DNA from: a virus | Virus record (IMG/VR): IMGVR_UViG_3300044623_001092 | Reading direction: 5' to 3' (one strand) | Length of the DNA stretch: 64,000 nt | Shown: one piece after another, positions 12,470-46,722 of the stretch | Numbering within the stretch: the first letter of the stretch is position 1 | Layout: the number at the start of each line of letters is the position of its first letter | Translations under genes and position numbers: made by a program | The notes under the pieces: model-generated | What the model was told of the DNA's origin: nothing | What the model saw: only the letters and a program-made list of their open reading frames with translations | Databases searched by the model: none

Positions 12470-13855
12470 TTACTTAACATAATAAAAACCATTACCTTCT
12501 TCAAGTAACCTATCTTGTAATCTTGGTGGGATTATTAAGTTAGGTACATTTCTAACCGTTAAGAATGCTAATCTAGGTAAGTCCGCAATTTCTTCAGGTA
12601 ATTCTTTTAAACTTTTGTTTTCTGACAATGTCAAGAATTGTAAGTTTTTCATATTACCAATTGATTTAGGTAATGTTTTAACAAGTTTAACTAATAACAA
12701 TGCTTCAACATTAGTGAACTTACCAAGACTTTCAGGTATATCCAATTCAATGTTCTCATTAGATGTGTTACTGATTAACAAGTATTTAATTGTTGTTGGT
12801 AAAGATTCAAACAACTCTTCGAAACCATATAGTGCCACGAATTTACCCGCCGCACTGTTTGGATAATTAATTTCAACTTTTTCTTTATTCGCTGACGTTA
12901 ATCCCGCAGCAAACTCAGATTTGAAGAAGTCTTTCAACTCAGCCATTGGACCATTTAACAGTTTAACCAAATCAACTTGGTGGTCCATTCTATCCATGAA
13001 CGAACTTGTTGGGAAATTGAATTGGAATCTTTCTTGTGGTAACCCTGTTCTTTCACCTACAGAACCTTTGTCATCATTTGCAAGGATAACATATAACGGA
13101 CCTTTACCAGCATAGTAATGGAAGTTATTAGAACTTGGTGTAGATGTACACCAATGAGATTCACCATTTTCATAATCATAGAATCCACCGTACCATTTAG
13201 CAGCCTCAATTTGTGGTTCACCTGTACCTTCAATTTTAATTAAAGTGTAGTTAGGACCTTCAAATAAAATCTCAGCACCTGGATGAGCGTATTTATTTCC
13301 TTTTCTTTCAACTCTTGCCTGAGATTTAACAGTATTCTTATTGATTTTATCTCTAATCTCTTGTGGAAGACTTAAAATAGTACTCAATAATGAATTAGGA
13401 CTTAATTTATTAATATCTCGTTGTTCTTGTGGTAAATATTGTTTTACCTTATCAAATTTACCTAAGATATCCGTGAACTTAAATAAATCCTCAACGAATC
13501 GTCTTTTAAACTCTTTGATAGTTGCTTTATACTCAGGAGAATTTGGGTCAGCATTACCTATCTCTTCCAAATCACTTGTACTTGGTTTAACAAAGTTCTT
13601 TAACAACCAATTCGTGTATTTACCAGGTTGTATTTTATCCATATCAACAATTGAAGCACCATCCTCATCAAAGTTTTCAGGTTTTTTAGTTGTTGGGTCG
13701 GCAAAAATGATTTGTTTTAATGTGTCAAAGTCCATAAACCCTCTCCCTTTAGGGTCTTTAGGATTTGGAGCCACCAATTTATCGTAGAATACTTGGAATC
13801 TTGATTTGTCTTCAGCCTCAAGTAATATTTGTCTTAATACGGAATTAAATTTCAT
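12470..13855 (-). CDS. Protein with HWCTS-motif domain and C-terminal leucine-rich repeats
   Basis: IPESLGKFTNVEALLL / LPKSIGNMKNLQFLTLSEN / LKELPEEIADLPRL LRRs; HWCTS...Y...GPLYVIL core. Confidence 0.75.
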   Translation of the reverse strand: MKFNSVLRQILLEAEDKSRFQVFYDKLVAPNPKDPKGRGFMDFDTLKQIIFADPTTKKPENFDEDGASIVDMDKIQPGKYTNWLLKNFVKPSTSDLEEIGNADPNSPEYKATIKEFKRRFVEDLFKFTDILGKFDKVKQYLPQEQRDINKLSPNSLLSTILSLPQEIRDKINKNTVKSQARVERKGNKYAHPGAEILFEGPNYTLIKIEGTGEPQIEAAKWYGGFYDYENGESHWCTSTPSSNNFHYYAGKGPLYVILANDDKGSVGERTGLPQERFQFNFPTSSFMDRMDHQVDLVKLLNGPMAELKDFFKSEFAAGLTSANKEKVEINYPNSAAGKFVALYGFEELFESLPTTIKYLLISNTSNENIELDIPESLGKFTNVEALLLVKLVKTLPKSIGNMKNLQFLTLSENKSLKELPEEIADLPRLAFLTVRNVPNLIIPPRLQDRLLEEGNGFYYVK

Positions 13856-14758: not shown

Positions 14759-15562
14759 TTATTTTAAAATTTTATTTGATTTTGTTAGATTATCTTTTGC
14801 CCACAATGGTTGTAAATTATCTAACGAGTTAATATTACGAATTTTTTCCGACTTATCAAACTTTGAGACGGGTTTTATGTGGTCAATATGCCATTTACCC
14901 CAATTATTCCAAGACATACCGTCAGTAAATTGTTTCTCAATATGTTCTTTTAACTCTAACGCGGAATAACCTAAAACTTCATTTGTTTTACCTTCCTTAC
15001 TTGTTCCCAATCTTTTAATTGTATTAGTTAACACACTTCTCCAAGCAATGATATGGTTATTTTTTTCTTTGTTTTTATGATAATTGTTTCTTTTATTTAG
15101 CAATCCAATTTCAGATTTGTTATATTCTCTCTTTTTTTCAAGATATTTTTCATAATTTTCATTAACCCATTTTCTTGTATATTCTAATACTTTGTCTCTA
15201 TTACTTATTCTATATTCTGTATTTTTAATTTTAAGGAGTCCTTTATTTTTTTCACGATAAGAATCTGATACTTCTTTATATCTATCAGGATTTTTTAACC
15301 TCCATTCAGTATTTCTCAACAATATTGACTCTTTATTTTTCACATAATCTTTTAATTTATATTCTCTAACTTTTTCTTTATTATTCCCCACCCATAACTT
15401 GTGATTTTCATTTTTTTTAATTCGGTTCTCAGGTATTTTATTTATAGTTGAGATACATAATTTACAAATAGTTTTAACACCATCTTTTGAATGTTTGAAT
15501 TTGTGAAACTCACCCAATCCTTTTTCAACCCCACATTTACTACATGTTTTCTTTTCGTTCAT
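14759..15562 (-). CDS. HNH endonuclease with N-terminal Zn finger (free-standing homing endonuclease-like)
   Basis: KTCSKC...CKLC; WHIDHIKP...NLQPLWAKDNLTKSNK. Confidence 0.88.
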   Translation of the reverse strand: MNEKKTCSKCGVEKGLGEFHKFKHSKDGVKTICKLCISTINKIPENRIKKNENHKLWVGNNKEKVREYKLKDYVKNKESILLRNTEWRLKNPDRYKEVSDSYREKNKGLLKIKNTEYRISNRDKVLEYTRKWVNENYEKYLEKKREYNKSEIGLLNKRNNYHKNKEKNNHIIAWRSVLTNTIKRLGTSKEGKTNEVLGYSALELKEHIEKQFTDGMSWNNWGKWHIDHIKPVSKFDKSEKIRNINSLDNLQPLWAKDNLTKSNKILK

Positions 15563-15716
15563 AATGTTCTTTAACTAACTTCTGAATAAACTTAGAGACA
15601 CTCGCCCCCTCGTTCTTCATTTTATCAAAAAGATATCGGTCAATACTAATTCCATACTTAACTTTTTTATCTTTATCTTCTTTTTTAGGTCTCCCCATTT
15701 TAGTTTCCATACTCAT
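15540..15716 (-). CDS. Small DNA-binding protein (GRPKK motif plus ribbon-helix-helix-like)
   Basis: MGRPKK...KVKYGISIDRYLFDKMK..SVSKFIQKLV; start 15716 or 15710, downstream of TATTTATA (15725-15732). Confidence 0.65.
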   Translation of the reverse strand: MSMETKMGRPKKEDKDKKVKYGISIDRYLFDKMKNEGASVSKFIQKLVKEHYERKENM

Positions 15717-15794
15717 CTCTTTATTATAAATATAAGTAAAGTGCGTTAAAAAGTCAATAACCAAAAAAAACTTTTACAAATTTCATCATACCTA

Positions 15795-15824
15795 TTGTAA
15801 ATGTCGAAATTAAATGTAACTTTG
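15795..15824 (+). promoter_or_regulatory. Bacteroidota-type promoter upstream of the 92-nt tandem unit
   Basis: TTG(15795)-N19-TAACTTTG(15817-15824). Confidence 0.75.
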
Positions 15825-15852
15825 TATTGTTGATGTGATTGAGGACACACAA

Positions 15853-16036
15853 CAGGATGTCAGAACTCCTAACTTACAATCTGACCATTAAGTATCAGGT
15901 GAGGTGATACGGGTTGATTACCCCAACTTAATAAGTGAAACAATCAGGATGTCAGAACTCCTAACACATAATCTGACCATCAAGTATCAGGTGTGGTGAT
16001 ACGGGTTAACAACCTCAACTTAATAAGTGAAATAAT
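15853..16036 (+). repeat. Two tandem 92-nt near-identical units (candidate structured ncRNA and/or 16-aa micropeptide ORFs)
   Basis: Copy 1 15853-15944, copy 2 15945-16036; both begin caggatgtcagaactcctaac and end aacttaataagtgaaa(c/t)aat. Confidence 0.9.
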
Positions 16037-16066
16037 CAAGACCCTCCGTTTTTTCGGGGGGTTTTG
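16037..16066 (+). terminator. Intrinsic terminator closing the tandem-unit transcript
   Basis: caagaccctccg-tttttt-cggggggttttg hairpin. Confidence 0.7.
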
Positions 16067-16067
16067 A

Positions 16068-16075
16068 TATTTATA
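16068..16075 (+). promoter_or_regulatory. TATTTATA putative phage late-promoter motif (one of about 12 gene-proximal copies)
   Basis: Sense-strand TATTTAT[AT] also at 4709, 7419, 7481, 13874, 15725, 21700, 25616, 35148, 38775, 46726, 51645. Confidence 0.5.
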
Positions 16076-16080
16076 ACTAT

Positions 16081-16572
16081 ATGAAATTTCAAACAATAGT
16101 TAAAAGTCTTATTCTTGAGGCTCGTGAGTTACTAGACCAATACGAAGTTAATGGTATTGATGTCGATATTTTATACAATACTCATTCGAACATCGGGGTA
16201 AATAACTCAGCATTAGGTAGAGTACCTGTTGATGAGGTTTTAGAAGCTATGGTCGAAATCCTTGAAGTTATTGTTGAAGTATCATTAAACTCATTAGAAA
16301 AAGAATCTAACCACGATAAAGATAAATCAATCCTAATAGTTGATAACCAAGTTGGTGGTGATTACCACATCTGGGTTAATAGGGGTAGGTCAGGAACATT
16401 GTTCTTAACAATTAATACCTCAATTTACCACCCAAAACATTTACCATTACAAAAGAATGATGGTAAAATTATCATAACAAAAATTGGTGACACCATAGTT
16501 AAAGAATCGGTTGACGATACATTTACTTCTAAAGTTATCGGTAATATTATTGTTTATTATAAAAACAATTAA
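16081..16572 (+). CDS. Hypothetical protein with MKF...LILE leader
   Basis: 163-aa ORF; leader resembles that of 12470..13855. Confidence 0.75.
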   Translation: MKFQTIVKSLILEARELLDQYEVNGIDVDILYNTHSNIGVNNSALGRVPVDEVLEAMVEILEVIVEVSLNSLEKESNHDKDKSILIVDNQVGGDYHIWVNRGRSGTLFLTINTSIYHPKHLPLQKNDGKIIITKIGDTIVKESVDDTFTSKVIGNIIVYYKNN

Positions 16573-16574
16573 TT

Positions 16575-16730
16575 ATGAATGGAATTCCAAACACAGAATG
16601 TAAAGATTGTCAAAAAGGTATTTTCGACAAACCTTACAAATTAATACTAGTTGTAGTATTTTTCTCAGCAACATCAATTTATGGTTTAGGGCGAATCATT
16701 TACGATATCGTCCATTACCTAAATCACTAA
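16575..16730 (+). CDS. Small CxxC plus single-TM protein (51 aa)
   Basis: Manual: MNGIPNTECKDCQKGIFDKPYKLILVVVFFSATSIYGLGRIIYDIVHYLNH; starts 2 nt after the previous stop. Confidence 0.65.
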   Translation: MNGIPNTECKDCQKGIFDKPYKLILVVVFFSATSIYGLGRIIYDIVHYLNH

Positions 16731-38787: not shown

Positions 38788-41700
38788 ATGACATCTATTG
38801 AGATTGCTAACATAACAGGGTTATCATATCCCTATCAAATATACGTTTGCGACGTGTTTGGCAATCAGTGCGTACTGATTGCTACGATAAATACGTCAGT
38901 ACCTCCAAGTACTAGTTTCATATTACCAAGTCAATTTGATAATGCGCCAGCCGTCGGAGTTAAAATAATGACAAGTGATGGTTGTGAACGATTTGAAATT
39001 GTTTACTGTAACGTATTGGTTGCAACTCCTACACCTACTCCTACACCAACACCTACACCAACTCCAACACCTACCGTAACTAAAACCCCAACTCAAACAC
39101 CAACAAATACCGTAACACCAACTAACACTTCAACACAAACACCAACGAATGCTATAACACAAACACCAACGAATACTTCAACTCAAACACCTACTAATAC
39201 CGTAACTAATACACCAACTAATACGGAAACTCCAACTAACACACCAACACCCACAGTAACTAATACTGTAACTCAAACACCTACTAATACCGTAACTGAA
39301 ACACCTACTAATACTCCAACAAGTACTGTAACTGAAACGCCCACTAATACTCCTACTAGTACTGTAACTGAAACACCAACTAATACTCCAACGCCAACTA
39401 ATACTGAAACACCGACTAATACACCTACTAATACGGTAACAGAAACTCCTACGAATACCCCGACTAATACTACAACCCCAACATCAACAGTTACTGAAAC
39501 ACCGACTAACACACCAACCAATACCCCAACCAACACTATAACACCAACTGTTACTGAAACGCCAACTAACACTCCGACTAATACTATAACACCGACCGAA
39601 ACACCAACTAACACACCAACTAACACGTCAACAATAACACCATTTAACCCAACTAGTACACCAACATCTACTGTAACTGAAACTCCAACTCAAACACCTA
39701 CTCCTACTGTAACTGAAACACCAACAAATACTCCAACATCAACGGTAACCGAAACACCAACAAATACTCCAACATCAACTGTAACTGAAACTCCTACTAA
39801 CACTCCAACTAACACTCCAACTCCAACCAACACAGAAACCCCTACTAATACGCCAACCTCAACTGTTACCGAAACACCAACACAAACACCTACTAATACT
39901 CAAACCCCAACTAACACAGTTACTCAAACTCCAACAAACACTGTAACACCAACTAACACTTCAACACAGACTCCGACTAACACGCCTACGAATACTCCAA
40001 CGAACACCGTAACTAATACCGTTACTCCAACAAAAACTTCTACGAATACACCAACGAATACCCCAACAAATACGCCTACGAATACTGTTACACCGACAAA
40101 TACTTCTACTCAAACACCAACCAATACATCTACTAACACACCAACGAATACTGTTACACCAACGAATACTTCAACTCAAACTCCGACTAATACTCCCACT
40201 AACACATCTACGAATACACCAACACAAACACCAACGAACACAGTAACTAATACCGTTACTCCGACTAACACGTCGACAAATACTCCAACTAATACACCAA
40301 CAAATACTGTAACTCCAACCAATACTTCTACTAATACGCCTACGAATACTCCAACTAATACAGTGACTAATACTGTAACACCAACAAGGACTTCAACTAA
40401 CACACCTACGAATACTCCAACCAATACTGTAACGTCAACTATTACCCCAACTAATACTTCAACCAACACACCTACAAATACACCTACAAATACGGTTACT
40501 CCAACTAATACTTCAACCAATACTCCGACTAACACACCTACGAATACATCAACAAATACTCCTACAAATACTGTTACTCCAACTAACACACCTACGAATA
40601 CACCTACAAATACTGTTACTCCAACAAGGACTTCAACCAACACACCTACTAATACACCAACAAATACTATAACACCTACTAACACTTCAACTAACACACC
40701 TACAAATACTCCAACGAACACTGTTACACCAACAAGAACTTCAACAAATACTCCAACTAATACACCTACTAACACTGTAACACCAACAAGAACTTCAACA
40801 AATACTCCAACTAATACACCTACTAACACTGTAACACCAACAAGGACCTCTACCAATACCCCTACAAACACTCCAACGAACACTGTTACACCAACTAATA
40901 CTTCAACCAACACACCTACAAACACTCCAACGAACACTGTTACACCAACTAATACTTCAACCAACACACCCACAAACACTCCAACGAACACTGTTACACC
41001 AACTAATACTTCAACCAACACACCTACAAACACATCAACACAAACTCCGACTAACACACCAACAAATACTGTAACACCAACTAACACACCTACTAATACT
41101 TCTACTAACACACCTACAAATACACCAACTAACACACCTACTAATACTCCAACACAAACACCTACTAATACTCCAACGAATACTGTTACACCAACAAGGA
41201 CTTCAACAAATACTCCGACTAATACACCTACTAACACCCCAACGAATACGGTAACACCGACCAATACTGTAACTCAAACACCGACTAATACACCTACAGG
41301 AACTCCATTGGAGACTCCAACAAACACACCAACAAGAACATCAACTAATACCCCTACAAACACTCCAACGAATACTATTACCCCAACTAATACTTCTACT
41401 AACACCCCAACTAATACACCAACAAATACTGTCACATCCACAATTACCCCAACAAATACTTCTACTAATACCCCAACAAACACTGTGACACCAACTATTA
41501 CACCGACTAACACTTCAACAAACACACCTACGAACACTGTAACACCTACAAGAACTTCAACTAATACTCCGACTAATACTTCTACTAACACCCCAACGAA
41601 TACACCTACAAATACTGTTACTCCAACAAGGACTTCAACCAACACCCCAACTAATACACCTACAAATACGGTTACTCCAACAAATACTTCAACCAACACC

Positions 41701-44700
41701 CCTACGAATACTGTAACACCAACAAATACTTCAACTCAAACCCCTACGAATACTGTAACACCAACAAGAACTGCAATGAACACTCCTACGAATACCCCTA
41801 CAAATACTGTTACATCAACTAACACCCCAACGAACACTTCGACTAATACTCCTACGAATACGCCAACAAACACTGTAACATCAACTATAACTCCGACCAA
41901 TACTCCTACGAACACACCAACAAAAACTGTTACACCAACCAATACTTCTACTAACACACCTACAAATACACCGACTAACACCCCAACGAATACTGTAACA
42001 AATACACCTACAAAAACAGTTACCCCTACGAATACTCCTACGAATACTCCAACTAACACACCAACGAATACAGTTACACCAACAAGGACTTCAACAAATA
42101 CTCCAACTAACACACCAACGAATACAGTTACACCAACAAGGACTTCAACAAATACTCCAACTAACACACCAACGAATACAGTTACACCAACAAGGACTTC
42201 TACCAACACCCCTACGAATACACCTACGAATACACTGACACCAACAAGGACTTCAACAAATACTCCAACTAACACACCAACGAATACAGTTACACCAACA
42301 AGGACTTCTACCAACACCCCTACGAATACACCTACGAATACACTGACACCAACAAGAACTTCAACTAACACCCCTACGAATACACCTACGAATACACTGA
42401 CACCAACAAGAACTTCAACTAACACCCCTACGAACACTTCGACTAATACTCCTACGAATACGCCTACGAACACTGTCACACCAACAAGAACCGCAACTAA
42501 TACACCGACTAATACCTCAACAAATACACCAACAAAAACCCCTACACCAACAAAAACCCCAACGTCAACTTTGGGTCTTACAAATTATTTAGCACAACAA
42601 TGTTGCCCAACAACTCAATATTGGACATTACCTAATGGTAGTTTTACCGATTTCTCAACGGCAATACCTTTTGTTGATTGTGAGGACCCTGGAGTTTGTT
42701 ACAGGTCTATAAGAGATGGTGCTATAACACGTTATTGTAATAGTGGTATTACTTTATCAGTAGATTGGACTTACGAAACACAACCTTGCGGAGCGAAAGC
42801 GATTAAATCATTAAGTCCAATTTGTTCTGATAGTTATTGGTATTTTGTACAAAATAATGATTCAACACTTAACGTATATCAAATTGCTGATAATGGTTCT
42901 GGTTATGATATCTACAGTGATGTAGGTTGTTGTTCAGAAACTTATATGTCAGATTTAACTAACTCAACAACAGGAACTACTCCATCATTACCAAACTGTA
43001 ATTTTTCGTACACAGGTTCAGGTTTATTCGATTGGTTTAATCGTATTATTGATTTATCGGGTGATGACCCTAATTTACATTTCTACCCTTACTATAATTC
43101 AGGAACAACACAATGTTTAGTTAGTGGTAACGTTAATACTCAAGTAGTATCAATAACGAATAATTATTCTCCGTTGAATAAGACAGTTAAACTAAGTGAT
43201 GGTAATTGTTATAATATTATTTCAATTACAGGTGAAACGTCAACAACTACTTGGGTTCCACCAACATTATATAATGATTGTTTAACTTGTTCATTAACAA
43301 TTACTCCAACACCAACAAGAACCAATACACCAACACCGACTAAAACCCCAACACAAACACCTACAAACACTATCACACCAACTAAAACACCTACAAATAC
43401 CATTACACCTACAAACACTCCAACGAATACTTCTACGAATACCGTTACACCGACTAATACACCAACCAATACTGTAACTCCAACAAGAACACCGACTAAT
43501 ACTCCAACCAATACCGTAACTCCAACAAGAACACCGACTAATACTCCAACTAATACACCAACTAATACACCAACAAGAACCGCAACTAACACGCCTACAA
43601 ATACTGTTACACCAACAAGAACTGCAACGAACACTCCTACGAATACACCTACGAATACTATAACCCCAACTAATACTCCTACGAATACTGTAACACCAAC
43701 CAATACCCCAACGAACACTTCGACTAATACTCCTACGAATACACCAACAAGAACTGTTACACCAACAAGAACCCCGACTAATACGCCAACTAACACACCT
43801 ACAAATACTCCGACAAATACTGTTACACCAACAAGAACTGCAACGAACACTCCAACAAGAACCGCAACTAATACACCAACGAATACTGTTACTCCAACAA
43901 GAACCGCAACTAACACTCCTACAAACACCGTTACACCAACCCAAACAATTACCCCAACCCCAAACCAAACTTGTTTTACATACCCATCAGACCAAACTAA
44001 TATCATAATACCATCATCAGGTATTTCATCTGTTTACCCAATAACATTTACTATTTCAGGTTTAGTTACTGCAATTAGTGATGTTAAAATAACATTAAGT
44101 GGATATTCCCACACCTCAGTCGGAGATGTCGGTATGTTATTGGTAGCACCTGACAATACAAGTTGGTCATTACTATCAGGTAGAGTTGGAGCGGTTAATA
44201 ATGCGGTTAACGCTAACGTAACCTTAACAAGTTTTAGTTCACCAACATGGAATGGATATAGTTCAGGAACATTTAAAAATAATACATTGGTCGGTAACTC
44301 AATGCCATTCTCAGCACCATGTCCAACAACATTTGTTACGGGTAACTCACCTGAATTTACAATTTTTGATGGGTTACAACCACCTGTTTCAAATGGTCTA
44401 TGGAAATTATATATTCAAGATTTCTCAGTTATAGATTCTGGTACATTATCAGGAGCAACATTGGTTATTTGTTCTGAAAATACAACACCTACACCAACAC
44501 CAACTAATACTGTTACACCAACAATTACCCCGACTAATACGCCAACTAACACACCAACAAGAACTGTAACTCCAACAATAACTCCAACTAATACACCAAC
44601 AAGAACTGTAACACCAACAAGAACTTCAACTAATACTCCAACTAACACGCCGACAAACACTCCAACAAATACAGTTACACCATCTATAACACCAACCAAT

Positions 44701-46722
44701 ACCCCAACTAACACACCAACAAGAACTGTAACTCCAACAAGAACCCCAACTAATACTTCAACTAACACGCCGACAAACACACCAACTAATACAGTTACAC
44801 CAACAAGAACCCCGACTAATACGCCAACTAACACACCAACAAGAACCGCAACTAACACGCCGACAAATACTGTTACACCTACAAGAACCGCAACTAACAC
44901 GCCGACAAATACTCCAACAAATACAGTTACACCATCTATAACACCAACCAATACCCCAACTAACACCGTAACAAGAACTGTAACACCAACAAGAACTCCA
45001 ACTAATACTTCAACTAACACGCCGACAAACACACCAACTAATACAGTTACACCAACAAGAACCCCGACTAATACGCCAACTAACACACCAACAAGAACCG
45101 CAACTAACACGCCGACAAATACTGTTACACCTACAAGAACCGCAACTAACACGCCGACAAATACTCCAACAAAAACTGTTACACCATCTATAACACCAAC
45201 TAACACACCTACTAACACCGTAACAAGAACTGTAACACCAACAAGAACTCCAACTAATACTCCAACATCAACAGTTACACCGACAAGAACACCAACGAAT
45301 ACTCCAACACCTACTAAAACACCTACTCCAACACCAACATCAACATGTTTTAGTTATACTTTAGTTGGTACAGGTCGTTCAGGTGGTCAGTTCACATTTA
45401 CACCTTGTTGTACTAACGTTTATAATTCACCTGTTACTTTGAGTGCTGAGGATGGAGTATCAACAACTCAAGTATGTTCAAGTACATTACCTGTTTTATC
45501 AAGTGGTGGAGGAACAATCACGTTAAATGGTACATGTGATTATTGTGGTGATTGTTATTGTTTTGATTTGGCGGGTGGTGGATATACTTATATTGATTGT
45601 TCAGGGACAACACAAACTATTTTGACGTTGGCGACTACTGTATGTTCATCAAGTTATGTAGTACCAGATAGCTTTTCATCATCTTTCTCTAGAAGAGGAT
45701 TCTGTAGTGGTGGTATATGTCCAACACCAACACCTACACCAACACCAACGCCGACCATAACTGTTACACCGACAAGTACTTGTATTGGATATAACTTAAC
45801 TTACAACGGTGCTGAGTTAGGGTCATCAAGTGTTGCTTTTACACCATGTTGTAGTAATTCAACTGTGAATCCACGAGGGATGGGAATAGAAAGACCTTTT
45901 TTCTCAATTTGTTCAACAACTACACCTGTCGTTACTAATCTTAATGGTGGTAGTGTCTCAGTAGTTTCAACAGGTGTTTGTCCATGTACTACACCTACAC
46001 CAACACCAACAGTCACACCAACTAAAACAAATACACCAACACCCTCAGTTACTCCTAATTTTGTATCTGCGAATTTAATGATTCATTATGATTATAATAA
46101 TACATCATCATACGTTGGGACAGGTACATTAGTTAACGATTTAACGTCCGATAATATTACATCAACATTAACAGGCGGACCAACATTCAGTGGGTCACCA
46201 TTTGGTGTTATGAATTTTGATGGTGCTGGCGACCATACCTCATCCATCCAAAACGCCAATCTGTCAGCAATAACTAGCACGGTAACTTGTGAAGTATGGG
46301 TAAGACCTATTGATGTAAGTTTAGGTTCTGAAAAACAATTAGTAAATTATAATAATAACTTAGGTTTCAGAGCTAGAATAAACACAGATGGTTCAGTTGA
46401 AGCTATATATAACAACGGTGGAAGTGTCGATACCCTTCTAACCAGCCCTTCTTTAATTTTAAGTTCTACATGGTACCAAATAACTGTTGTATACCAAAAC
46501 ACATTGGTGAGTATTTACAAAAATGGGGCATTAGTAACCTCAGTTTTTGGATTAGGATTAAGCATGAACGCAACAAACACTAATATTCAATTTGGAAGAA
46601 TGTCTCCAGGTACTGAATGGTTTAAAGGTGGTTTAGGTATAATGAGAGTGTATAACTCAGCATTATCGGCAGCACAAGTCTTACAAAATTTTAATTTTAA
46701 TAGAGGAAGATTTGGTATATAA
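38788..46722 (+). CDS. Giant mucin-like protein: TPTN repeat blocks, Cys-rich modules, proprotein-convertase P-domain, C-terminal LamG/ConA-like domain
   Basis: 2644 aa; P-domain [24 protein letters not shown]...[10 protein letters not shown]...SGTLSG; LamG FDGAGD...TCEVWVRP...WYQITVVY...IYKNG...[17 protein letters not shown]. Confidence 0.85.
39022..42570 (+). repeat. Coding Thr/Pro/Asn repeat block 1 (includes near-exact 54-bp units near 42060-42430)
   Basis: [12 protein letters not shown] units; ccaacgaatacagttacaccaacaaggacttc recurs at a 54-nt period. Confidence 0.9.
43297..43960 (+). repeat. Coding Thr/Pro repeat block 2
   Basis: TPTN/TPTR units. Confidence 0.9.
44482..45345 (+). repeat. 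Coding Thr/Pro repeat block 3 with 252-bp higher-order period
   Basis: catctata (PSIT) at 44681, 44933, 45185. Confidence 0.85.

Follow-up and report, generated by a model that had tools for sequence, protein, structure and literature searches.

What could two tandem 92-nt repeats, set between a putative promoter and a putative terminator in viral DNA, be doing there? The question is raised by positions 15,795-16,066 of a 64,000-nt stretch of IMG/VR virus record IMGVR_UViG_3300044623_001092, the whole of which we call the window. An initial annotation had read the region as a candidate non-coding RNA that is processed into monomers and acts as an antitoxin mimic, a decoy or a sponge, or as the partner of the divergently oriented RHH-HNH genes. 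Judged by comparison with homologous sequences, the two repeats are copies of a new, conserved folded RNA family. The gene directly downstream (16081-16572, + strand) encodes a 163-aa protein of no known family, which we call cluster 1. Because the RNA adjoins this gene wherever the gene was found, RNA and protein are probably partners that work together.

Two copies of a conserved folded RNA

Tandem Repeats Finder reports a period of 92 nt, 2.1 copies, 88% matches and a score of 303 over 15849-16038, in agreement with the two tandem copies first described, and the units span 15853-16038 on the + strand. A 21-mer core, CAGGATGTCAGAACTCCTAAC, occurs exactly twice in the window, against zero occurrences expected from shuffles. 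The distal unit 1, of a type we call generic, covers 15853-15944 and scores 109.5 bits (E = 1e-25) with covariance model R1, which was built from an alignment of 28 distinct units (A1). Unit 2 (15945-16038), which adjoins the protein gene, scores 110.3 bits (E = 8e-26) and has the same sub-elements 92 nt further along. In the list of open reading frames (ORFs), none above 38 aa overlaps the repeats, so the region indeed lacks a long frame.

The fold energy of the whole transcript is unremarkable (z = -1.47). It is covariation that makes the case for structure. In A1, 95% of cells pair, versus 89.7% after shuffling and 27-42% when the partners are slid, and nine pairs are changed on both sides. 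Differences between the two copies in the window had been said to fall mostly in loops, and this holds in A1: ten of the 11 lie in loops or joints, and the remaining one turns a G-C pair into G-U.

Three local hairpins are strongly backed by compensatory changes in the aligned sequences. P3 (15892-15910, GUAUCA-GGUGAGG-UGAUAC), whose loop carries a conserved GGUG, is paired in 100% of cells in A1. In alignment A5 (40 distinct sequences) about 96% of its cells pair and all six pairs are doubly changed, with variants that include GAAUCG/CGGUUC, AUACCG/CGGUGU, GUGUUG/CAACAC and AAACUG/CGGUUU. P4 (15911-15923, GGGUU-GAU-UACCC) has G-C as its first pair in 15 sequences, G-U in seven and A-U in five, and its fifth pair is C-G in unit 2 of one homologous locus (L012). 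P5 is a mini-hairpin of 3-4 bp (15926-15936, ACUU-AAU-AAGU) with three of four pairs doubly changed (ACUU/AAGU, AUCC/GGAU, AUUC/GAAU), and a conserved tail, GAAA(C/U)AAU, runs from it to 15944. P3 and P4 had been drawn from the window alone, as gtatca/tgatac and gggt(t)...(a)acc hairpins, and homologues bear both out, the second as gggtt/(t)accc. The closing stem drawn with them, at(t/c)aa/ttaat, we reject because 68.6% of its cells pair and it shows zero compensatory changes; it overlaps P5, the local hairpin that takes its place.

The H-type pseudoknot at the 5′ end of the unit, also part of the original proposal, is supported, if thinly. In unit 1 (15854-15885), S1 pairs 15854-15857 with 15867-15870 (AGGA/UCCU) and S2 pairs 15859-15863 with 15881-15885 (GUCAG/CUGAC). 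Both stems are invariant among close homologues, partly because the search patterns fixed S1 and S2. Divergent members, which were reached via the protein and not via RNA patterns, keep both stems through compensatory changes: S2 is GUUGG/CCAAC in L053, GUUAGG/CCUAAC in L060-L065, GUCAGC/GCUGAC in L058 and GGUCA(C)GG/CCUGACC in L066, and S1 is GGGA/UCCC in L058 and in unit 2 of L055. The support is thin because few lineages vary. G-U pairs occur in P3, P4 and S1 and would be A-C mismatches on the opposite strand; they fit the + strand only, which marks it as the functional one.

Nothing in Rfam 15 reaches the gathering score for the window or 10 homologous loci, and the family is thus absent from Rfam, as anticipated. 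At E-value thresholds Rfam gave chance-level sub-threshold matches only, mostly on the terminator. ARAGORN found no tRNA or tmRNA in the window or six related loci, and a tRNA-like stretch suspected after the terminator of L027 was not confirmed.

The RNA adjoins one gene family

Exact and degenerate pattern scans located the RNA unit in viral contigs of IMG/VR and in metagenome contigs of lake and marine origin. About 70 related RNA loci were collected, every one in uncultured phage or metagenome contigs. They come from related phages, and the counts given here are comparative and do not represent independent events.

Viral loci with a gene for a relative of the protein (28-59% identity) number 31, and in all 31 the RNA adjoins that gene; the count covers viral loci, with the metagenome protein matches P0001-P0026 outside it. 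A search of viral contigs with protein alignment A2 yielded 21 loci at 28-53% identity, and R1 places the RNA immediately upstream in all 21 (E 1e-7 to 1e-25). In a divergent sub-family (alignment A7), all ten true viral loci carry an adjacent RNA. No cluster-1 gene without the RNA was found among viral loci, and in our own ORF clustering every locus with two units has cluster 1 after the RNA. Three near-complete records (91-100%, 272-318 kb) have one cluster-1 gene each; the two of these three that were also searched with R1 have one RNA each, adjacent to that gene.

Adjacency is kept through three arrangements: RNA-terminator-protein; two RNA units-terminator-cl0-protein; and a convergent one, found in eight of the ten sub-family loci (L060-L067, contigs up to 318 kb), in which protein gene and RNA meet at a shared bidirectional terminator. 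The convergent arrangement is hard to square with a simple 5′ leader. Three arrangements and protein identities down to 28% show that the link between RNA and protein is old. The convergent-type RNAs have a pseudoknot loop L3 of only 4 nt, and L060 (3099-3175, - strand), L062, L063 and L066 carry an extra conserved 5′ domain of ~75 nt between promoter and pseudoknot.

Multi-unit arrays are found nowhere but next to the protein gene, as two full units or as a pseudoknot-P3 half-unit with a full unit. The window and L003-type loci have two units, five loci have 1.6, and many protein-bearing loci have one. Protein-adjacent units are on average 71.5% identical to each other, versus 98.5% among distal units. 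Window-type and L003-type phages share ~40% identity in the protein and 71-76% in the proximal unit. The distal unit 1 of the window is 98.8-100% identical to the distal units of L003, L006 and L012 despite differing promoters and leader hairpins, which reflects either extreme constraint or a gene conversion that stops at the borders of the unit. Two patterns speak for a partnership in trans: every protein gene found has the RNA, and the proximal unit changes in step with the protein.

The RNA also occurs without a detectable cluster-1 homologue in several lineages (L002, L004, L014 and L030 types and the giant L007 and L009 types). These RNA-only contigs are 10-76% complete, and as a positive control the protein was detected in five of five known carriers. 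Elsewhere, at L011 (1850-1925) and the equivalent positions of L018, L029 and L032, an unrelated hairpin domain and a terminator stand in place of unit 2 and the cluster-1 gene. The next gene in the L011 lineage, P0079, is convergent; its first ~40 aa resemble cluster 1 (hhalign probability 22%) and the remainder does not.

The RHH-HNH genes had been put forward as a possible partner of the RNA. They occupy 14759-15764 (- strand) of the window, an RHH-like gene and an HNH endonuclease; in L002 (2563-3373, - strand) an RHH gene with a LAGLIDADG endonuclease sits at the same spot beside the RNA promoter, and most loci have no such pair. The pair looks like a swapping homing-endonuclease cassette, and we reject the partnership because the cassette is variable or absent. 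The conserved partner appears to be the downstream ORF at 16081-16572, which had not been linked to the RNA. In L003-type phages, a NUDIX hydrolase gene lies just 5′ of the RNA promoter (L003, 5864-6247, - strand) and a cytidylyltransferase-like gene lies downstream.

An RNA gene with its own signals

The units fit the description of a discrete + strand RNA gene, with a Bacteroidota-type promoter before them and an intrinsic terminator after them. The promoter, read from the sequence at 15795-15824 (+ strand), comprises a -33 TTG at 15795-15797, a 19-nt spacer and a -7 box, TAACTTTG, at 15817-15824; we infer that it acts as such. A TAnnTTTG box stands at the same distance 5′ of the RNA in L002, L003, L004, L020, L033, L039-L058 and L060-L068, and box and leader hairpin together precede the RNA in most loci. 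In the window the leader hairpin (15830-15852, + strand, UUG-UGUG / CACA-CAA), taken from the minimum-free-energy fold, is directly 5′ of unit 1. Analogous hairpins of differing sequence were seen by eye in several loci, such as L003 (GUGUGA/UCACAC) and L049 (GUUGAU/AUCAAC), and none is clear in L039.

The predicted intrinsic terminator, a GC-rich hairpin (16038-16065, + strand), pairs AAGACCCUCCG with CGGGGGGUUUU around a 6-nt loop and ends in a short U run; GACCCUCCG-UUUUUU-CGGGGGGUU with its U run folds at about -25 kcal/mol. A simple pattern scanner did not flag a terminator at 16038-16065. A terminator hairpin lies directly 3′ of the RNA in every homologous locus, and in every co-directional locus it separates the RNA from the protein gene. 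In giant-phage contigs (L007, L009, L016, L027, L037) the RNA starts 2-3 nt 3′ of the stop codon of the upstream gene. In three of them (L007, L009, L016) it is followed by a U-rich terminator and then by a fresh promoter-like box or the signal ATATTTAT.

This signal has its counterpart in the window. A ATATTTAT box at 16067-16074 (+ strand), 6 nt 5′ of the cluster-1 ATG, is a conserved putative start or promoter-like signal, and it recurs 3-6 nt before the ATG of genes whose products share a short N-terminal leader, cluster 1 in all three arrangements among them. It is kept before the cluster-1 gene in L060-L066, ~10 nt 5′ of position 2501 of these loci, where the RNA is not upstream, and before leader-encoding genes of L007, L009 and L011; it is thus shared by very divergent loci and may be a phage-specific promoter or a start signal. 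Before start codons of the window as a whole, TATTTAT is not enriched against control AT-rich heptamers. A promoter or start signal of its own is therefore probable for the cluster-1 gene, whose expression need not depend on read-through of the terminator.

The probable partner protein

Searches of Pfam, PHROGs, PADLOC, NCBIfam, PDB sequences and the ESM Atlas gave no family match for cluster 1, and a profile search across 1.84 billion representative proteins returned only 52 clusters, the divergent sub-family included. In alignment A4 (25 sequences) the invariant residues include E13, R47, D88, T113 and E142, and S36, D94, S114, H117 and P118 are near-invariant; in alignment A6 (51 sequences) R47 alone is invariant, and E13, D88, D94, T113, S114 and H117 are near-invariant.

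Two AlphaFold2 models, with mean predicted local distance difference test (pLDDT) values of 78 and 81, agree in topology. Foldseek found no match in the PDB at E <= 0.001. With VIA-align, both models repeatedly but weakly match RelE/ParE/YafQ/BrnT/HigB toxins, CdiA-CT ribonucleases and T4 RegB over residues ~26-123 at Z 3.3-4.4; the best match has Z 4.4 with a root-mean-square deviation of 3.1 over 77 residues, and RegB scores Z 3.4-3.5. Foldseek against a viral library returned a RegB-named 'site-specific RNA endonuclease' (E = 0.011, TM 0.46-0.52). The cluster-1 protein may therefore be a RelE/RegB-like endoribonuclease, going by these models. We treat this as a lead rather than a finding, because the fold scores lie below the aligner's noise level (Z < 5) and a profile comparison with T4 RegB by hhalign was negative (probability 0.3%). 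No sequence match to ToxN, CptN or TenpN came from Pfam (E up to 0.01), PADLOC (E up to 1), NCBIfam or PDB sequences, and no ToxN-like chain appears among the structural matches listed, all of which are weak.

The first 13 residues of cluster 1, MKFQTIVKSLILE, resemble the leader MKFNSVLRQILLE of a 461-aa LRR protein encoded at 12470-13855 (- strand) of the window. A leader of ~13 aa with the pattern MK..[LIV]..[KR].[IL][IL].E is common to unrelated proteins, among them the LRR protein, cluster 1, the cl0 paralogues, cl29 and cl31. A similar leader is present in the divergent cluster-1 sub-family, and carrier proteins occur in loci L007, L009, L011 and L027. Going by its likeness to a phage T4 capsid-targeting leader (see below), leader-bearing proteins may be packaged into the virion and ejected. 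No prohead protease was identified in the window.

The ORF 3′ of cluster 1 (16575-16730, + strand) encodes a 51-aa protein with an N-terminal CxxC, one membrane helix and no family match. A 51-aa CxxC protein is encoded directly 3′ of the RNA in phages without cluster 1 (L002, L004, L014, L030).

Source and distribution

The gene content of the window is phage-like (Dam methylase, HNH endonuclease, DnaJ, primase, SbcC-like protein, tail fibre), and its source is an uncultured giant phage that probably infects Bacteroidota. A structural-gene search was uninformative on the host assignment. The window also holds a 2644-aa ORF (38788-46722, + strand) whose sole family match, to a P-domain, is weak; GC skew in that region is very strongly negative (down to -0.73).

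In 185,579 prokaryote species genomes two pattern scans found no RNA unit; the single match, L038, is a chance match within a coding region. In the same genomes no host type III system with a similar RNA was found, and the suggestion that the phage RNA mimics a host antitoxin is not supported. In 50,697 GenBank phage records, blastn with the RNA and tblastn with the 163-aa protein gave no match. The RNA thus appears restricted to uncultured giant phages from lakes and seas and new relative to Rfam, novelty being judged against that database and not against the 10,006 viral candidate structured RNAs catalogued in PMC10690425.

What the RNA may do

We favour, tentatively and with somewhat less than even confidence, an autonomous small RNA that would act in trans on the cluster-1 protein, binding and controlling it in the manner of a type III antitoxin, outside the ToxIN, CptIN and TenpIN families. 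Transcription would start at the host-type promoter and give an RNA with a 5′ hairpin, one or two 92-nt units and the intrinsic terminator. This RNA would bind the cluster-1 protein and keep it in check, as a type III antitoxin does a ribonuclease toxin. The protein, possibly a RelE/RegB-like endoribonuclease with a capsid-targeting-like leader, would be made from its own ATATTTAT start signal. In phages that have only the RNA, it could serve as a stand-alone antidote or decoy.

Several observations weigh against this explanation. The adjacency is common to related phages and so is not fully independent evidence, and the module is absent from the cultured phages of the GenBank searches. The RNA-only lineages suggest a role that does not need the protein, as does a distal unit that hardly varies between phages whose proteins differ greatly. 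The many single-unit loci mean that processing of a repeat array, a hallmark of type III systems and part of the original proposal in the form of tandem repeats cut into monomers, cannot be general. The protein's own ATATTTAT signal leaves room for RNA and protein not to be co-transcribed, which weakens the parallel with the toxIN operon. On the protein side, the fold matches and the hhalign comparison fall short as described above, and the isoelectric points of cluster-1 proteins (4.7-8.9) are not consistently basic as expected of an RNA binder.

A free-standing trans-acting RNA aimed at a host factor or another nucleic acid (ribosome, ribonuclease, RNA polymerase or a defence system), with the protein a mere syntenic companion in an accessory-gene region, is the alternative we take most seriously, though we still think it unlikely. 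It would account for the RNA-only lineages, which include contigs of 187 and 224 kb, for the L011-type loci in which no co-directional gene follows the RNA, and for a transcription unit with a promoter and a terminator of its own; a distal or solo unit that is 94-100% identical across phages with differing flanks would also fit a highly conserved external target. It leaves aside an adjacency of 31 in 31 that survives three rearrangements and extends to ~28% protein identity, and the restriction of multi-unit arrays to the neighbourhood of the protein. Moreover, the RNA-only contigs are incomplete, and the 185,579 species genomes hold no similar RNA or obvious target. A cis-acting 5′ leader that governs read-through from the terminator into the protein gene, be it a riboswitch, an attenuator that responds to a protein or an antitermination RNA of the put type, strikes us as improbable. 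The order promoter, RNA, terminator, ~15-25 nt, ATG in the window and most protein-bearing loci is what such a leader would show; the U run of the terminator in those loci is short or interrupted, and maybe leaky; the core nucleotides are highly conserved, as in an aptamer; and some RNAs have a second pseudoknot-P3 domain, much as aptamers can occur in tandem. None of this sits well with an RNA that is convergent with the protein gene in L060-L067, that is followed by a convergent gene in L011-type loci, and that begins 2-3 nt past a stop codon in the five giant-phage contigs listed above, in three of which terminator and fresh signal come after it. The ATATTTAT signal is kept before the protein gene even without an RNA upstream, no Rfam riboswitch matches, and a conserved alternative pairing of the antiterminator type was not seen by eye in the terminator folds, for which no systematic duplex search was made.

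The terminator that always directly follows the RNA, and the giant-phage loci where the RNA comes right after an upstream stop codon, could also mark a 3′-end module with no partner of its own, in which RNA and terminator shield upstream messages from 3′ exonucleases or insulate neighbouring genes. Many loci have their own promoter and no upstream message, conservation reaches loops and pseudoknot, far beyond the needs of a stabiliser, and the strict link to one protein family would go unexplained; we consider such a module highly improbable. We attach very little weight to an element that acts as DNA, such as a recombination site, or a target or co-conversion tract for the homing endonuclease next to it. 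An RHH-HNH cassette adjoins the RNA in the window and an RHH-LAGLIDADG cassette in L002-type loci, and endonuclease-driven gene conversion could yield a near-identical distal unit in different phages, but an endonuclease gene is missing from the surroundings of most loci, promoter and terminator are conserved, and compensatory changes together with G-U pairs speak of selection on a folded + strand. As for twin 16-aa micropeptides (MSELLTYNLTIKYQVR) encoded by the repeats, an ATG and a 16-codon frame are present in each window unit and its closest homologues. Across homologues the frame runs from 5 to more than 30 codons, divergent members stop at 5-8 codons, the ATG has become TTG, with a 1-nt deletion, in the clade of L048, L049 and L057, which thus lacks the start codon, and the substitutions are pair-preserving double changes. 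Base pairing is kept and the frame is not, as expected from the non-coding RNA originally proposed, and we reject the micropeptide reading, to which we give next to no credence.

The favoured pairing of a trans-acting RNA with the cluster-1 protein can be extended into a fuller scenario, which we regard as distinctly unlikely to hold in full. Giant Bacteroidota phages would use the N-terminal leader to package a RelE/RegB-like ribonuclease in the capsid and would inject it to shut the host down, and the pseudoknot RNA, made early from the host-type promoter, would be the antidote that protects their own messages. A type III-like pair would thus be put to use for attack instead of defence, and phages with only the near-invariant generic unit would be immune to the enzymes injected by their competitors.

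These loci add to the structured RNAs a class of ~92 nt, with a pseudoknot and three hairpins, that is absent from Rfam, and it is among the few phage RNAs with a strictly co-occurring partner protein that lacks a known family. If the RNA neutralises a ribonuclease-like protein, the logic of RNA antitoxins would reach phage genomes and would no longer be limited to three known families of type III toxin, and if the protein is packaged and injected, the pair would be a new device for host takeover or for competition between phages. Whatever the function, a distal unit that barely changes from one divergent phage to another points to a molecular interaction under strong constraint.

Comparison with known systems

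Pseudoknotted RNAs between a promoter and a terminator or gene are familiar as phage leader RNAs, such as the autoregulatory pseudoknot of gene 32, the put RNA of HK022 and riboswitches, and the same elements are found here. Unlike these cis-acting leaders, the present RNA occurs in convergent and stand-alone arrangements, the protein gene has its own signal, and Rfam has no match.

The modelled fold of the cluster-1 protein weakly recalls T4 RegB, RelE and ParE: a predicted beta-alpha-alpha-beta-beta-beta order over residues ~26-123, in a phage-borne gene for a protein of similar size. Cluster 1 has conserved His, Arg, Glu and Asp residues, as these proteins do, but it shows no sequence or profile similarity to them and has three extra C-terminal strands. 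RegB is not known to have an RNA partner.

The leader of cluster 1 has its closest parallel in the capsid-targeting leader of T4 IPII and IPIII, MKTYQEFIAE|A, since both this and MKFQTIVKSLILE|A end in hydrophobic-x-Glu followed by Ala. In the T4 internal proteins IPI, IPII and IPIII a leader of this type, ~10-13 aa long, is cut off after Glu by the prohead protease and the protein is packaged in the head; here the likeness is one of motif, and cluster 1 may share this fate. These internal proteins are not known to have an RNA partner. In T4, as here, the leader is common to unrelated, fast-evolving accessory proteins (PMC3012670, PMC9026906).

The comparison with type III toxin-antitoxin systems drawn in the initial annotation has proved the most useful functional analogy, and the differences are as instructive as the likeness. 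Repeats of type III antitoxins are ~36-45 nt long, whereas the unit here has 92 nt, with a pseudoknot and three hairpins, and often occurs as 1 or 1.6 units. Unlike ToxIN, CptIN, TenpIN and AbiQ, one clade here is convergent, with the RNA downstream and on the other strand (L060-L067). That clade and the protein's own ATATTTAT signal make a single operon doubtful. Cluster 1 lacks a sequence match to ToxN, CptN or TenpN, is often acidic and has its own start signal, and the module is carried by giant, lytic-looking phages and not by bacteria or plasmids. By toxin sequence it would therefore fall outside the known type III families, with repeat number and operon structure as doubtful points. Known type III loci comprise a promoter, short pseudoknotted RNA units that can be tandemly repeated, a Rho-independent terminator and the gene of a small protein (PMC5086642). 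In general layout the loci here resemble them, with a protein of ~160 aa that is never found without the RNA. RNA-only copies are also known in phages, as in the pseudo-ToxI of phage TE (PMC5086642), and the RNA-only phage loci described here may be their counterpart.

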